64,000 nucleotides of DNA from a virus. The DNA is taken from IMG/VR virus record IMGVR_UViG_3300046373_000039, positions 1 to 64,000 of that record. One strand, written 5' to 3'. Each line of letters opens with the position of its first letter. The stretch's first letter is position 1. This document shows, piece by piece, positions 11,906-17,844 of this stretch. The position numbers and the translations under genes were made by a program. The notes beneath the pieces were generated by a model. The model saw nothing but the letters and a program-made list of their open reading frames with translations, was not told where the DNA came from and made no database searches.

Positions 11906-12100
11906 TCATTTTTCTAAATCTCCTTTAAAAACAAAAAATTCTTGACAAGCATAGACAAACAGCCTCTGTTCAGTCCTGTCTTCTGGATAATCACGTTCAA
12001 ACGGATGACCAGTGGACTTAGCTTCAAGACCTGATGTCTGTAGCTCTTTACCACAAGCTGTGCATAGTGGTGTAATTTTAATGGTGATTGTGTGGGTCAT
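11906..12100 (-). CDS. Small zinc-ribbon-like protein
   Basis: CTAC at N-terminus; GAGGA RBS. Confidence 0.55.
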   Translation of the reverse strand: MTHTITIKITPLCTACGKELQTSGLEAKSTGHPFERDYPEDRTEQRLFVYACQEFFVFKGDLEK

Positions 12101-12301
12101 TTATTCTTCCTCATGAATAGAGCTTGTACCAGTCCAAATAGCCTTGGCATGTTCTGGATAGTTAAGACTTAAAGTGGACTGAATATCCTCAAACGATTTA
12201 CCTAGACGATGCATAGCATGAATAGCTTCCCGACGAGCAGCTAGAAAGTCAGCCCACCATTGATAGGATTCGTCAAATTGTTTTAGTTCTTGGGTGTTCA
12301 T
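12101..12301 (-). CDS. Hypothetical protein, possibly HTH-like
   Basis: AIHAMHRLGKSFEDIQSTLSL resembles a helix-turn-helix. Confidence 0.5.
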   Translation of the reverse strand: MNTQELKQFDESYQWWADFLAARREAIHAMHRLGKSFEDIQSTLSLNYPEHAKAIWTGTSSIHEEE

Positions 12302-12312
12302 TTTGATCCCCC

Positions 12313-13662
12313 CTATTTCTTAGAAATCTTGCAATATTTATCTGATCCTAACACATCCTTCCATGCCTGTACCATAGCTGCTTGCAATAAATCTTCAACC
12401 GATTCTCGGCAGCAGAATGAATCATGATAGCATAGAGCAACCTCACCATTTTGTATCATCAAATCAATCACACGTAAAGCAATATCACTGTCAATCTTCT
12501 GTAACCATACTCCCTTATCACTATAAAATTCCTTTTCAATCACATAGTTATGATCTGCCAGTGCTTGAATAATCTTTCCTGTATCAGGCTTGTCAACCCC
12601 AAGAAATTCACGGTCTTTTTCTTCACGCAGATTGTCTTTAAATATTTCATTACCAAGTGTCCGTTTGGTCTGTGCAAAATCTACACAGTTAATAGACAGC
12701 AGCAATGCACGTTTATACAAAGCTCGTACAGGATCGTATTTAGCCAGTCCATATTTCATTTTATGCTTAGCAATCAACATCTTATCAACAGTCAAGAACG
12801 ATTTATCAGCATCATAAGGATCAAAAGAATCTGTTACTAAATCAGCAATTTCTGGATTATTGTTATAATAAAGAGAATATAGAGCATGAGGGTGGTTGGC
12901 TTTATAGTCCAATTCACAAATCTTCTCTTTGTTTATAGTAATATGTTCTAGTCGGTAGTCTTCTGGTAATAGCTGGATACCACCACCATGAACGAACAAT
13001 CTACCACCATGGAACAAATCGCCACTAAATGATCGCTTGTACTCCACCAGCGGTAAAGGCTCACCCATGAATTCAATCTGTACTTCAGTTAAGCTTTGGT
13101 TATAAGTATTCATCTCAGCAACCATTTTAAAGAACTCCTCGTTTTGCTCAATTAACATCTGTTCTTTTGTCTTTCGATCTTTAATTACAACAGGGTCAAT
13201 CAAACAACCTTCTGCTACATAAAGCTTTATTTGGTTGTCATCAAACAGATTCAATAGCTTATCTTCAAATCGGATAATGCTAGGATAAGACAACCAATCA
13301 CTACGTGTATCTTTGTTACCTAATAGTAGTGTAACATATCCTTCTTCCTGTAGGCTGTCAAGCACAGAATTCACTTGTCTTGCCCCAATCCCACATATAT
13401 TTCCAGACCAATAGCTAGCCTTCAGCCTAACACTGAATCCTTTATAACCATTTCGTATAGCTTTACTTGTGTTAGTGAAGAACCATTGAATGGCGTTATA
13501 CTTCTTATCTCCATACCTATTAGTAAAGGCGTCTACAATAAGATTATATGCTTTATTCTCTTCTCTAAAGGGTTTACCTTTCATGGTAGAGAGCAATACC
13601 TTATACTTCTCAACTCCCTCTATTTCTCTTACTTTCATCTTATTCCAATCCTCATCCCTCAC
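12313..13662 (-). CDS. Minimal PolA-superfamily (TV-Pol / T7-RNAP-related) polymerase-like protein, 449 aa
   Basis: GGRLF pre-motif, motif A ELDYKANHP, motif B RALYKRALL, motif C YHDSF; no 3'-5' exonuclease motifs seen; AGGAGG RBS. Confidence 0.65.
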   Translation of the reverse strand: MRDEDWNKMKVREIEGVEKYKVLLSTMKGKPFREENKAYNLIVDAFTNRYGDKKYNAIQWFFTNTSKAIRNGYKGFSVRLKASYWSGNICGIGARQVNSVLDSLQEEGYVTLLLGNKDTRSDWLSYPSIIRFEDKLLNLFDDNQIKLYVAEGCLIDPVVIKDRKTKEQMLIEQNEEFFKMVAEMNTYNQSLTEVQIEFMGEPLPLVEYKRSFSGDLFHGGRLFVHGGGIQLLPEDYRLEHITINKEKICELDYKANHPHALYSLYYNNNPEIADLVTDSFDPYDADKSFLTVDKMLIAKHKMKYGLAKYDPVRALYKRALLLSINCVDFAQTKRTLGNEIFKDNLREEKDREFLGVDKPDTGKIIQALADHNYVIEKEFYSDKGVWLQKIDSDIALRVIDLMIQNGEVALCYHDSFCCRESVEDLLQAAMVQAWKDVLGSDKYCKISKK

Positions 13663-13686
13663 TATCCTCCTATATGGGAAACAAAC

Positions 13687-13873
13687 TTATTCTGACCAAA
13701 CCACCTCATATTTAGGACACACATCAGACAACCTATGTACATAAGTGTCGTAATCCCTAAAATTACCAACCAAGAAGAATACCCCTTTGATTATTCATGA
13801 CAAGCATTTGCCGATCTTTTAGCTTAAATCTCTCGCCAGTAGATACATCAATGATTTTGAATTTCTTTTTCAT
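13687..13873 (-). pseudogene. Frameshifted small gene (61 aa if one base is removed at CAAAGGGG)
   Basis: 187 nt; MKKKFKIIDVSTGER...NNQ continues in another frame as GVFFLVGNFRDYD...VVWSE. Confidence 0.55.
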
Positions 13874-14064
13874 TATGCTTTCCTCACCAAATAACCAAGC
13901 ACCTTTAACATCTCTTCACTAAGATCCATTTTGTAAAGAATATTGATAATCTCTTGCTTCTCCTCCGCTGCATACCTATCTTCAAGAATCTTCTTGCAGA
14001 CCATCATACCTTCACCAGTTTCTTCACGAAGCTTACGAACATCTTCTGCTGTAATTGTTTTCAT
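13873..14064 (-). CDS. EF-Ts N-terminal (UBA-like) domain mini-protein
   Basis: ITAEDVRKLREETGEGMMVCKKIL matches the EF-Ts start [24 protein letters not shown]. Confidence 0.75.
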   Translation of the reverse strand: MKTITAEDVRKLREETGEGMMVCKKILEDRYAAEEKQEIINILYKMDLSEEMLKVLGYLVRKA

Positions 14065-14067
14065 CTT

Positions 14068-14412
14068 TTAGCTCCAAACAACGTTATGGAAATTCTGAGC
14101 AGAGTGTACACGAACCTTGTCTTCCAGTCTCTGCGTACAGTTCGGCATATTAGCTTGCAACCAGTCTTCAATCAATCGCCAATCAACTACTTGGCTTGTG
14201 GGGTCAATAAACAACACTTTCTTTTTGTTGACAACCGCGGTAGTTAACGATATGAATACAGGCATGTCACCTAGACGGCCTACAACAACACCTGTACCAA
14301 AACAGTTCTGAATCCAATCAACCTTTTCATGCCATTGCTGCCAAAGACAAAAGTCCTCAAAGGTTGTAGCTTCTACTACAGACACAACGTCTTTCAAGAA
14401 ATCTTCATACAT
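14068..14412 (-). CDS. Phage hypothetical protein
   Basis: GAGAGG RBS before MYEDF; first gene after promoter 14448-14476. Confidence 0.7.
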   Translation of the reverse strand: MYEDFLKDVVSVVEATTFEDFCLWQQWHEKVDWIQNCFGTGVVVGRLGDMPVFISLTTAVVNKKKVLFIDPTSQVVDWRLIEDWLQANMPNCTQRLEDKVRVHSAQNFHNVVWS

Positions 14413-14447
14413 TTTGCCTCTCCTCATCCATTTATCCAACAGCCCTC

Positions 14448-14540
14448 ATAGTACCCAACAAATCCGCAGTAGTCAAGAGGAAATTTAGAGAAATTATTTT
14501 GCATAGAGATGTTGACAGGTGTGGGGATGGGGTGTAATCT
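14448..14540. promoter_or_regulatory. Divergent sigma70 promoter pair at the strand switch
   Basis: Minus: TTGACT-N17-TACTAT (14476-14448); plus: TTGACA-N17-TAATCT (14512-14540). Confidence 0.7.
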
Positions 14541-14576
14541 TGGTCTACGTTAATCGATAGGTAGAGGAGAACACCA

Positions 14577-15428
14577 ATGGAAATCAAAGCTTACGCCTGT
14601 AAACACTGTGAATCAATCTACAAGACAGCACAAAAAGCATCAGCATGTGAAAAGAAATGTGTAGCCCGTATTGCCGAGAAAAAGGTTGAAGAGGAGCGTG
14701 AAGCAAACCTTCAAACACTTGTTCATTATGTCCGTCTGAATGCTGAGTCTGTAGAAGATATCTGCCGAATGTCTGAGGAAGTCAGTCAGAAATTATTCCC
14801 TAAATCTTCTATCAAGAAGATGATATTGCGAGTAAGCTATAATTCTCACGCAAGTAATACGCACTCTCGTCCGATTGGTGGTGTTAGTAATTTCAGTCCC
14901 CGTAGTAATCCTGAAAAACCAACAGGGTACCCTGCACTGACTGGCACTATCGGGGTTGTCTATAACAAAGAACCTAAAGGATTTAGTGATGAAGTCTTTA
15001 ACCTATATAATGGTATTGCAGGGATTCACACAGGTTCTGGTGGTTATCAAGGGTCTGATGAAGGCTATACTGTAGGTTATAGTGTAACACTGTGGTTGTC
15101 TGACTTCCCAAAGATTCAAGCTACCATTGAGACTAAACAAAAATACATTGATAGCTATGAGGCGTTTCGCTCCAACCTTGCTGGAGAATATCTGGAACAA
15201 GTGAATGCAGATGCCGAGATTAATATTGCTAAGTCCAATATCAAAGACTTTGAAGATGAAATCAGAAAGCTACGTGAATTGATTGTTTGCGAGGCAGATA
15301 TCATCAAGGACAAGAAAGTAACGTACTCTGCACCGAAGCAAGAAATTCTCGATAAAGAGTATCAGAAGACCTTGAATGATTTTGGTATTAGTCGTGGTCA
15401 TCAGTACCTGACAAGCAGATTGGAATAA
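14577..15428 (+). CDS. Hypothetical 283-aa protein with N-terminal Cys motif and C-terminal coiled coil
   Basis: CKHC...CEKKC; GAGGAG RBS; own promoter. Confidence 0.8.
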   Translation: MEIKAYACKHCESIYKTAQKASACEKKCVARIAEKKVEEEREANLQTLVHYVRLNAESVEDICRMSEEVSQKLFPKSSIKKMILRVSYNSHASNTHSRPIGGVSNFSPRSNPEKPTGYPALTGTIGVVYNKEPKGFSDEVFNLYNGIAGIHTGSGGYQGSDEGYTVGYSVTLWLSDFPKIQATIETKQKYIDSYEAFRSNLAGEYLEQVNADAEINIAKSNIKDFEDEIRKLRELIVCEADIIKDKKVTYSAPKQEILDKEYQKTLNDFGISRGHQYLTSRLE

Positions 15429-15431
15429 CGC

Positions 15432-15460
15432 TTGACTGCACAGAATTTTACGAGTATTAT
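15432..15460 (+). promoter_or_regulatory. sigma70 promoter for the replication module
   Basis: TTGACT-N17-TATTAT. Confidence 0.7.
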
Positions 15461-15496
15461 TGATCGTATTGAAATTAATTGATGAGGAGAGATGTG

Positions 15497-15763
15497 ATGT
15501 TTACAGCCAAAGACCTATACAATAAGATTCAAGAATCAAATGAATGCCCAGCCATTGATTTCTGGATTGAAAATACTTTGGTGGAGAGGTTCAAATCAAA
15601 TCCACATAATGTGACAGTAGCAGTGAGTGTGTTGAAGGTTAACAATTGGACTAAGACAGGTTTTGAATTGTCTATGAAAGAACGTGGGTTTCATGTTAAG
15701 TTTGTAAGTGATCAGCGTGATGGAGATTATTATTCAATCAGCTATCCGCCACAGAGCCTTTGA
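15497..15763 (+). CDS. Hypothetical protein
   Basis: GAGGAG RBS before MFTAKD. Confidence 0.65.
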   Translation: MFTAKDLYNKIQESNECPAIDFWIENTLVERFKSNPHNVTVAVSVLKVNNWTKTGFELSMKERGFHVKFVSDQRDGDYYSISYPPQSL

Positions 15764-15764
15764 T

Positions 15765-15929
15765 ATGAGTAACATATACGAGATTTACTACGAAAATAAA
15801 CAAGGTGACATTGTTCATTGTCAAGATACATATGATGAACAAGAAGCTTTACGTGAAATTTACTCACTGAGTTATGAATTCCCTAAAAATAGCTATTGGT
15901 ATGAAGTAACTTATGAGGATGAACAATAG
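15765..15929 (+). CDS. Small acidic protein
   Basis: ATG just after the previous stop. Confidence 0.55.
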   Translation: MSNIYEIYYENKQGDIVHCQDTYDEQEALREIYSLSYEFPKNSYWYEVTYEDEQ

Positions 15930-15984
15930 CTATCCTTGAAAGCATTTGAATTAAGGTGGGATTAGAGATTATGGGAGAGATGAT

Positions 15985-17844
15985 TTGAGTAATATTAGAG
16001 AGGTTATATCTCACTATCTTGATATCTCTGGCGACAAATGCTGTTGTCCTTTTCATAAGGAACGTACACCTTCGCTGAATATCTTTGATGAGACAAATTC
16101 ATTCTATTGTTTTGGCTGTGGTCAAAGTGGTGATGAAATTGAATTTGTAAAAGAGTACAAAAGGTTGACATTTCCTAATGCTGTGAAGGAGGTGTGTTCA
16201 ATTCTAAAACTGACTAAAGAGGAGCTTATGGAAAGTAAAGATAAAGAAAAAGTTGCTGAGAAAGTATCTGTTGAAAATGCTGAAGTTATGGATGTTGAAG
16301 AGGTTAAATCTCTAATTCAATCTACAGGCTATGTAAGTAATGGTTATCGCGGTATCCGAGATGAGATTAACAAATTCTTTGGACACTTGAGTAAACTTGA
16401 TAGTCAAGGCAATGTAATTGCTCGTTATTATCCTGAAACCAATAACAATGGTAAATTAACTGGTTACAAATGCCGAAATACACCAAAAGACTTTAGTCAC
16501 GGGAACCAAGGTATTACAGGCAGCAAAAGTCAATTAAGCGGTCAAGTAAAATTCAAATCTCCTGCCAAATATGTTCTCTATGTTGGTGGCGAGGAGGACA
16601 AAGCAGCAGCTTTTCAAATGCTCAAGGACAATCGTAAGGATCAGGAATTTGATTCTATTCCTGTAGTAAGCTCAACGGTTGGTGAGTTGACAGCGGCCAA
16701 ACAAGCTGCACAACAGTATGATTGGTTTGATCAATACGATATCATTATAATTGGTATGGATAACGATGAAGCTGGTCGAATTGCTGCAAAAAAGATTGCA
16801 GACGTGCTACCTAAAGAAAAAGTACGTATTGCTACTTGGTCAGGTAAAGATCCAAATCAGATGCTGATTGACGGCAAAGAGAAACAGTTTGTTCGTGATT
16901 TCTATAATGCTAAGGAGTTTATAAACAGTGGTATTTCCTCTTCTGGTGATGCTGAAGCGGGTCTTGAAGAATTCCTGACAGCGCCTAAGATTGGTCTTCC
17001 ACCACAACTTAGTAAGCTTCAGGCTGCAATGCGGGGTGGTATTAAGTCAACTGGTTCCGTTGTAAATATCATTGGCGACACGAGCATCGGTAAGAGCTTT
17101 CTGTCTGATACACTGATTTATCATTGGTTGTTCAATAGTCCTCGTGTACCAACTATTGTTAGTCTTGAACGTACCAAAGAAGAGTTGACAATTGATTTAC
17201 TTTCCATGCACCTTAAGAAAAACCTGATGTGGTTTACAGATGGTCATGATGCTGTTGACTATTTGAATCAACCAGAAGTTCAGCTACTGAAAAATGAGCT
17301 TCTTTACAACGAAGCTGGTGAACCTCGATTCTTTATCATTGACGAGCGTGAAGGTGATATTGAACTTCTGAAGCGTCAGATGGAGAAAAGTGGTAAAGTT
17401 AATGACTCACGATTGATGGTTATTGACCCACTAACTGACTTCTTGCGGTCTTTGGGAACAGAAGTACAAGAGAATTTTATGATGTGGCAGAAGCTGCAAA
17501 AGAAGAATGGTTTTGTATTTATCAACATTCTTCACACACGCAAACCACCAACTGATAAAGATGGTAATGTCCGCAAGGTTACGGAATATGATGCGTTGGG
17601 GTCCGGGACATTTATCCAGTCAGCAGACGTTAACATTGTGATCAATCGTGATAAGATGGCCTCAGATCCGATTGAGAAGAATACGACCTATGTTGACATG
17701 CCTAAGTGTCGTGGGGGTATCACTGGTGAGATTTGTGCGCTATACTATGACGCTGAAACTCGTCAACAATATGATCGTGATGAGTATTTTAATAATCCAG
17801 TAGAAGAACCACCGCAACATCATGCGGATGAGATTGATTTTTAA
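15985..17844 (+). CDS. Primase-helicase (CHC2 Zn finger + TOPRIM + SF4 helicase)
   Basis: CPFH...CFGC; GGEED and MDND TOPRIM motifs; Walker A GDTSIGKS; VIDPL; HTRK; KCRGG. Confidence 0.9.
   Translation: MSNIREVISHYLDISGDKCCCPFHKERTPSLNIFDETNSFYCFGCGQSGDEIEFVKEYKRLTFPNAVKEVCSILKLTKEELMESKDKEKVAEKVSVENAEVMDVEEVKSLIQSTGYVSNGYRGIRDEINKFFGHLSKLDSQGNVIARYYPETNNNGKLTGYKCRNTPKDFSHGNQGITGSKSQLSGQVKFKSPAKYVLYVGGEEDKAAAFQMLKDNRKDQEFDSIPVVSSTVGELTAAKQAAQQYDWFDQYDIIIIGMDNDEAGRIAAKKIADVLPKEKVRIATWSGKDPNQMLIDGKEKQFVRDFYNAKEFINSGISSSGDAEAGLEEFLTAPKIGLPPQLSKLQAAMRGGIKSTGSVVNIIGDTSIGKSFLSDTLIYHWLFNSPRVPTIVSLERTKEELTIDLLSMHLKKNLMWFTDGHDAVDYLNQPEVQLLKNELLYNEAGEPRFFIIDEREGDIELLKRQMEKSGKVNDSRLMVIDPLTDFLRSLGTEVQENFMMWQKLQKKNGFVFINILHTRKPPTDKDGNVRKVTEYDALGSGTFIQSADVNIVINRDKMASDPIEKNTTYVDMPKCRGGITGEICALYYDAETRQQYDRDEYFNNPVEEPPQHHADEIDF

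Follow-up and report, generated by a model that had tools for sequence, protein, structure and literature searches.

EF-Ts and L7/L12 have been reported to use a common site on EF-Tu, helix D (PMC5574714), and an alpha-hairpin has been described as the EF-Tu-binding motif common to the two (PMC4739770). In the M. tuberculosis EF-Tu:EF-Ts complex, R13 in helix 1 of EF-Ts bonds P114 and E155 of EF-Tu, and K24 in helix 2 bonds D144 and D145; these two are given as the residues of the EF-Ts N-terminal domain that contact EF-Tu, and the EF-Tu face at the contact is negatively charged (PMC9529903). The expulsion of GDP has been attributed to the core subdomain N and the C-terminal helix of EF-Ts (PMC8807479). 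Previous work also showed that the Rhs ADP-ribosylating toxin TreTu anchors on helix D of EF-Tu and is blocked by EF-Ts (PMC9825190). Furthermore, EF-Tu is cleaved by the Lit protease and by type IV Thoeris, and Avs7 employs it as a structural component (PMC13581612). Pieces of EF-Ts are known from phages: gp247 of Caulobacter phage Colossus is a truncated EF-Ts-like protein with the core subdomain N and its F81 (PMC3556154), and gp21 of Lactococcus Ceduovirus resembles the C-terminal dimerisation region of EF-Ts (PMC7150918), and both have been proposed to be translation modulators.

Here, we analysed a mini-protein gene in a 64,000-nucleotide stretch of viral DNA (the window; positions 1 to 64,000 of IMG/VR record IMGVR_UViG_3300046373_000039). 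The window is part of a complete 84,283 bp virus record with direct terminal repeats, and the G+C content of the phage is 39.6%. Like Colossus gp247 and Ceduovirus gp21, the product is a phage-encoded EF-Ts fragment; however, those two proteins carry other parts of EF-Ts, whereas the mini-protein consists of the N-terminal docking hairpin only. In the literature, supplements aside, we found no paper describing phage mini-proteins with the N-terminal EF-Ts hairpin (or DUF7231). Thus, while phage EF-Ts pieces as such were already known, what is new here is a stand-alone, remodelled phage copy of the EF-Ts docking hairpin. The features of the locus are collected in Table 1.

Table 1. Features of the mini-protein locus (positions in the window).
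Feature	Position	Strand	Basis or remark
Mini-protein gene	13873..14064 (including stop codon)	minus	ORF list: ATG start, 63 aa
GGAG ribosome-binding site	14072-14075	minus	7 nt 5' of ATG, read from sequence
Residues 1-31, EF-Ts-type helix-turn-helix hairpin (H6-16, turn TGEG, start of H20-45)	13972..14064	minus	
Residues 32-49, helix 2 continuation and loop	13918..13971	minus	alignments A1 and A2; AF2 models
Residues 50-63 and stop, conserved C-terminal helix (I/V-L-x-Y-L-V-R-K)	13873..13917	minus	A2 counts; both AF2 models
36-aa ORF	13763..13873	minus	start overlaps mini-gene stop
123-aa gene, phrog_18096	14068..14439	minus	upstream in leftward unit, ends 3 nt before mini-gene
Replaceable cassette: 36-aa ORF, mini-gene and nearly all of 123-aa ORF	13692..14420	.	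run X4 contig

The preliminary description, made from the sequence alone, had placed a 63-aa ORF here, and the minus-strand ORF list returned it with an identical peptide. Six pairwise comparisons among four mini-protein genes of 63 codons gave dN/dS values of 0.09-0.17, which marks the mini-gene as an expressed-type coding sequence maintained by purifying selection. The same description had reported an alignment to the EF-Ts N-terminus without gaps that kept LR, TG, GMM and CKK, and the phmmer alignment bore this out. When the single sequence was searched against the PDB with phmmer, EF-Ts chains were the six best of 7 matches (best chains 7vmx_A, E 0.0017, and 1efu_B, E 0.0043), and 16 of 26 residues were identical in the ungapped alignment of residues 4-29 to E. 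coli EF-Ts, as counted on the printed alignment. In the Pfam scan of the mini-protein, EF-Ts_N (PF25025) scored 12.7 bits (E 0.13), below its gathering cut-off of 33.2 bits, UBA/TS-N (PF00627) gave no match at E <= 10, and DUF7231 (PF23877) scored 15.8 bits, below its gathering cut-off of 27, with only residues 2-29 matched, on profile positions 34-61 of 126. Weakly related PHROGs families exist without an assigned function; the 62-position phage family phrog_36594 matched the mini-protein weakly (E 0.015) and four of its distant relatives at E 4e-4 to 3e-3. Matches in the ESM Atlas were only to small hypothetical, EF-Ts_N or UBA clusters, and the automatic annotation of a close homologue, from one source, read 'translation elongation factor EF-Ts'.

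Searches with family profiles extended these matches. An exhaustive search of 1.84 billion proteins gave 446 matches at E <= 0.001 and reached true EF-Ts proteins at E 2.4e-16 (P0033); when 10 among 150 of these matches were scanned with Pfam, five were true EF-Ts proteins with the PF00889 core, P0033 among them. An hhalign comparison of 45 mini-proteins with 83 EF-Ts N-termini gave a probability of 98.8% and an E-value of 7.5e-17 over 32 columns. By these alignments, the likeness between the mini-protein and EF-Ts is well beyond chance. The preliminary description had named generic UBA and L7/L12-like domains as the better matches that would speak against it. When a profile of 33 diverse members was searched against the PDB, the seven best matches were all EF-Ts (E 7e-9 to 0.49), bL12 appeared at E 4.6, and no UBA protein, eukaryotic or other, was found at E <= 10. 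The N-terminal ~31 residues of the mini-protein are, on this evidence, a true and EF-Ts-specific homologue. In the family-profile search, query residues 1-31 lay on residues 1-31 of the EF-Ts chain, and because initiator Met is aligned to initiator Met, the alignment points to an origin of the first 31 residues in the 5' end of bacterial tsf. A tblastn search of phage records with the mini-protein returned only host tsf in 'unverified' records and one weak match, and P0146 found the same host-tsf contaminant again. The 'unverified' phage records concerned (OQ572403.1, MT838987.1 and OR844988.1) hold full-length bacterial tsf, in one case beside rpsB, which looks like host DNA in the assemblies.

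Two AF2 models, from a close alignment (pLDDT 92.7) and from a far more diverse one (pLDDT 92.2), had the same fold, with helices at residues 6-16, 20-45 (continuous) and 50-62. The EF-Ts coordinates used for superposition were those of the EF-Tu:EF-Ts crystal complexes 4pc1_D and 4pc3_C, on which residues 3-31 of the model with pLDDT 92.7 matched EF-Ts residues 2-30 with an rmsd of 0.5-0.6 Å over 29 residues. In contrast, the whole three-helix domain of 1efu_B fitted the model over 35 residues only, at an rmsd of 10.2 Å. The compact three-helix TS-N/UBA-like bundle, in which helix 3 is folded back after an xGD turn, was absent from both models, since helix 2 continues to residue 45 and leaves no counterpart of the third EF-Ts helix. 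The preliminary description had compared the protein with the N-terminal domain of EF-Ts; this holds for the first two helices, the hairpin, and not for the third helix or the domain as a whole. As modelled, the mini-protein thus retains the docking hairpin rather than the complete EF-Ts N-terminal domain. The hairpin combines the pattern expected of an EF-Tu-binding alpha-hairpin, V..LR..TG.G(M/L)M.CK..L, with the EF-Ts backbone. Foldseek with the model put EF-Ts at eight of the nine top ranks and also aligned the bL12 chain 8rdw_D, taken from a ribosome-EF-Tu complex, over 24 columns with an rmsd of 0.6 Å. Whole-model fold searches (Foldseek PDB, BFVD) gave no match at E <= 0.001 and only weak or generic helical ones, and in VIA-align wide the whole model likewise matched helical hairpins of a generic kind (best Z 5.2). 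When alignment A1 was used to predict a complex with E. coli EF-Tu (EFTU1_ECOLI), a stand-in for the EF-Tu of the host, the scores were 0.33, 0.28 and 0.30, with the mark at 0.32, and they speak neither for nor against binding.

The comparison with known domains can now be made residue by residue. The mini-protein has in common with the EF-Ts N-terminal (TS-N, UBA-like) domain helix 1, the TGxG turn, helix 2, the Met start and both R13 and K24, but it lacks the third helix, the core, the dimerisation module and the C-terminal module. In the ungapped alignment to the M. tuberculosis chain, R13 and K24 of the phage protein stand at the same positions as in EF-Ts. Conservation was counted in 33 mini-proteins (alignment A2; 30-92% identical to the protein of the window) and in 83 EF-Ts N-termini. 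Eight residues invariant in all 83 EF-Ts N-termini are widely kept in the mini-proteins: L12 (28/33), R13 (26/33, with Q in the others), T16 (30/33), G17 (32/33), G19 (29/33), C23 (31/33), K24 (29/33) and L27 (29/33). Among 31 close homologues, R13 is replaced by H, Q or Y in six and K24 by H or N in five. Three other positions differ between the two groups: at position 15, 70 of 83 EF-Ts have R whereas 26 of 33 mini-proteins have E; at position 18, A or S (76/83) gives way to E or D (29/33); and at position 22, E or D (81/83) gives way to A (18/33). With these substitutions, the mini-protein hairpin is more acidic: acidic residues occupy sites in its turn and helix 1 at which A and R are found in EF-Ts. 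Helices 4-5 of the bL12 (L7/L12) C-terminal domain form the same kind of alpha-hairpin, but their sequence similarity to the mini-proteins is marginal (E 4.6 versus 7e-9 for EF-Ts in the profile search), and judged by these matches the mini-protein clearly belongs to the EF-Ts lineage and not to that of bL12.

The remainder of the protein had been called an unrelated helical tail. It is indeed predicted to be helical in the AF2 models, and the local hhalign alignment ends at column 32; however, it is not arbitrary, because its last helix is conserved, with L59 in 33/33, Y58 in 28/33 and L56 in 26/33 members of alignment A2. Residues 32-49 are variable in length and sequence in alignments A1 and A2, with a semi-conserved EEK motif, and an alignment of 31 homologues showed residues 1-30 to be nearly invariant and the middle to vary in length. 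We considered whether the C-terminal helix could be the displaced third helix of EF-Ts, and found this unsupported, as in the global hhalign alignment the third helix falls on residues 33-47; this pairing is itself of low confidence, and residues 33-47 as the counterpart are likewise unsupported.

A word-indexed protein search found 31 homologous proteins of 63-77 aa at E <= 0.01. With at least 17 further, more distant full-length relatives, the full-length relatives span 59-87 aa, and metagenomic phages hold at least 48 full-length family members. One distant member (P0054, 41% identity to the protein of the window) has homologues in five cultured Pseudomonas phages; CNR37_00063 (86 aa) of Pseudomonas phage ventosus matched profile A2 with a probability of 97.7% and E 1.9e-12 over 54 columns that span both the hairpin and the C-terminal helix. 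Homologues are also present in phages Bitten and vB_PF_Y1-MI, whose hosts are P. protegens and P. fluorescens. Rheinheimera phage Barba19A gave no match to profile A2. A scan of 185,579 species genomes with the A1 pattern gave 494 pattern matches, 0 of which were confirmed as relatives. The EF-Ts protein P0158 carries the string TGEGMMACKK in common with the mini-protein, and its relatives in the genome scan were only gammaproteobacterial EF-Ts proteins of at most 58% identity. When five related complete genomes were compared with profile A2, three had one full copy, one had a chimera and one a remnant. In the chimera (locus L015, 3989-4321, plus strand, 110-aa ORF), the first 22 mini-protein residues, through TGEGMMA, are followed by an unrelated tail, and P0031 (77 aa) is built similarly. 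The hairpin is found in further contexts as well: P0091 combines it with a phrog_16192 domain (E 9.5e-33), P0059 contains it twice, and in P0050, P0055 and P0058 it follows an N-terminal extension. These five, together with P0157, are small proteins with a fuller EF-Ts N-terminal-like domain in varied architectures. This suggests that the EF-Ts N-terminal module has been reused repeatedly among small proteins, and the varied partner domains fit a portable docking module.

Within a leftward unit of closely spaced genes, the mini-gene comes second; this unit diverges from the rightward replication genes, with a primase-helicase at 15985. The nearest cultured relatives of the primase are those of the Rheinheimera Barba phages (54% protein identity), and a megablast of positions 12000-16000 against phages gave no match. 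In IMG/VR, 14 loci encode a relative of the mini-protein. The general position of the gene is kept across them, with the primase side on one flank and a 449-aa gene (phrog_4756) on the other, while the immediate neighbours vary: the 123-aa gene adjoins the mini-gene in none of the 14, and a homologue of the 36-aa ORF lies near it in seven (57-86% identity), sometimes upstream and sometimes downstream. Since it is conserved near the mini-gene in half of these loci, the 36-aa ORF is probably a real micro-gene. The 449-aa protein (12313-13662, minus strand; phrog_4756, E 1.1e-74) is conserved beside the region in five of the 14 related loci; its YHDSF string resembles what we take to be metal-binding motif C of single-subunit polymerases, and neither it nor the 123-aa neighbour had a Pfam or PDB match. 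The rightward unit opens with a 283-aa protein (14577-15428, plus strand; phrog_12523, E 1.6e-10), which showed a weak, sub-threshold Pfam match to the Ubl domain of ubiquitin-activating enzyme (E 0.0032).

Sequencing runs compared with positions 12300-15500 (metatranscriptomes X8-X10 and DNA run X4) gave contigs of a relative, with the mini-gene outside their coverage. In the X4 contig, position 13691 is joined to 14421 by 211 unrelated letters in place of the 729-bp stretch with three genes, which marks the three small genes as a replaceable cassette. A second replacement was seen at ~14563-15429, with 223 letters in X4, and similarly in X8, from 14516, with 305 letters. Swap-prone cassettes thus lie on both sides of the putative divergent promoter region. 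Since relatives show the mini-gene exchanged, joined to a different tail or shortened to a remnant, it is, by this comparison, accessory and dispensable. The preliminary description had also proposed early expression. Between 10500 and 16200, 17 promoter-like sites were counted against 17.9 expected from shuffles, and two terminator-like sites against 3.1; a weak promoter-like site at 14476-14448 (minus strand) was dismissed, the count being no higher than in shuffles. As promoter-like sites are no commoner than in shuffled sequence, it is the position of the mini-gene that suggests it may be expressed early.

What the protein does can be proposed from these features, and we infer EF-Tu binding and all effects downstream of it. 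We favor the reading that the mini-protein is a non-catalytic ligand of EF-Tu helix D that acts as a competitor, shield or adaptor, to which we give somewhat less than an even chance. The product would be a small all-helical phage accessory protein whose tsf-derived hairpin would dock on the G domain of EF-Tu at helix D. Three outcomes are conceivable. The mini-protein could compete with EF-Ts and bL12, so that nucleotide exchange and ribosome recruitment would be throttled; it could cover the helix-D face and so keep off toxins or defence effectors that anchor there, and we hypothesize that EF-Tu would in this way be shielded from defence systems, as the preliminary description had also supposed; or its conserved C-terminal helix could hold a second partner and link it to EF-Tu, an idea that gains a little from the occurrence of the same hairpin in the other architectures (P0091, P0059, P0050, P0055 and P0058). 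A canonical exchange factor is excluded, because the GDP-expelling core and the C-terminal module are missing and the EF_TS core PF00889, which includes the region of the TDFV motif, is absent from the entire 84,283-bp phage record, while it was found in 10 of 14 control genomes. The mini-protein shares with TreTu the proposed docking site, helix D, where EF-Ts competes; TreTu, however, has enzyme activity and a fold unrelated to that of the mini-protein, which has no catalytic domain. Several features count against the favored reading. The hairpin is the more acidic one and would have to face the negatively charged surface of EF-Tu, R13 and K24 are substituted in some close homologues, the third helix is missing, and the gene is dispensable. 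The hairpin also accounts for little of the full EF-Ts interface, and its affinity could therefore be low.

Some of these features would suit an EF-Ts-derived hairpin that has been retargeted to a different partner, for instance another translational GTPase (one of those contacted by bL12), a ribosomal site or a phage protein, with EF-Tu binding lost. The charge changes at positions 15, 18 and 22 are systematic and specific to the family, and the third helix of the domain has been lost while a new conserved C-terminal helix is present; yet the best-kept residues are those invariant in EF-Ts, including the reported contacts R13 and K24, and the hairpin backbone is unchanged (0.5-0.6 Å). We consider this retargeting rather unlikely. 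It is less probable still, and in our view improbable, that we are dealing with a small helical protein of regulatory or structural function, such as an early-region dimer that binds DNA or protein, and that its EF-Ts ancestry is functionally meaningless today. The generic hairpins returned by the whole-model fold searches (best Z 5.2) and the place of the gene among many small ORFs without an assigned function would agree with such a protein, but the surface residues of the hairpin, and not its core alone, are EF-Ts-like even in members of 30-47% identity, which argues against neutral reuse of a scaffold, since that would not need them.

The remaining two explanations find little room beside the evidence. 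As a UBA-like module, the protein could bind a bacterial ubiquitin-like partner belonging to a defence system of the conjugation type, as Pfam places the EF-Ts N-terminal domain with UBA (model 'UBA/TS-N') and the neighbour at 14577-15428 has its weak Ubl-domain match (E 0.0032, below cut-off). However, neither the protein (E <= 10) nor the family profile (PDB) matched UBA, helix 3 of the UBA fold is absent and the Ubl match of the neighbour is far below threshold, which leaves this explanation very improbable. That the gene is a functionless, decaying fragment of a captured host tsf might be read from the remnants and the chimeric form in relatives; this is contradicted by the dN/dS of 0.09-0.17, and the 31 close and at least 17 distant full-length relatives (59-87 aa), the ribosome-binding site and the tight operon spacing also speak against it, so that we find it scarcely credible.

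EF-Tu is a hub of the conflict between phages and bacteria, and if the mini-protein is a ligand of EF-Tu, as we favor, a hairpin for helix D alone would be a simple and testable phage contact with it. Experiments are feasible, since a member of the family is present in cultured Pseudomonas phages, which opens the family to experimental work. A broader and decidedly speculative possibility, which we regard as improbable, is that these proteins represent a widespread, undescribed class of phage decoys for helix D of EF-Tu, made from the first 30 tsf codons, that protect EF-Tu or uncouple it from EF-Ts and bL12. If so, occupation of helix D would guard EF-Tu from the proteases and toxins that dock there or, alternatively, would uncouple EF-Tu from EF-Ts and bL12 and reprogram translation. 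Such phages would practise counter-defence by masking a host translation factor and not by attacking a defence protein.
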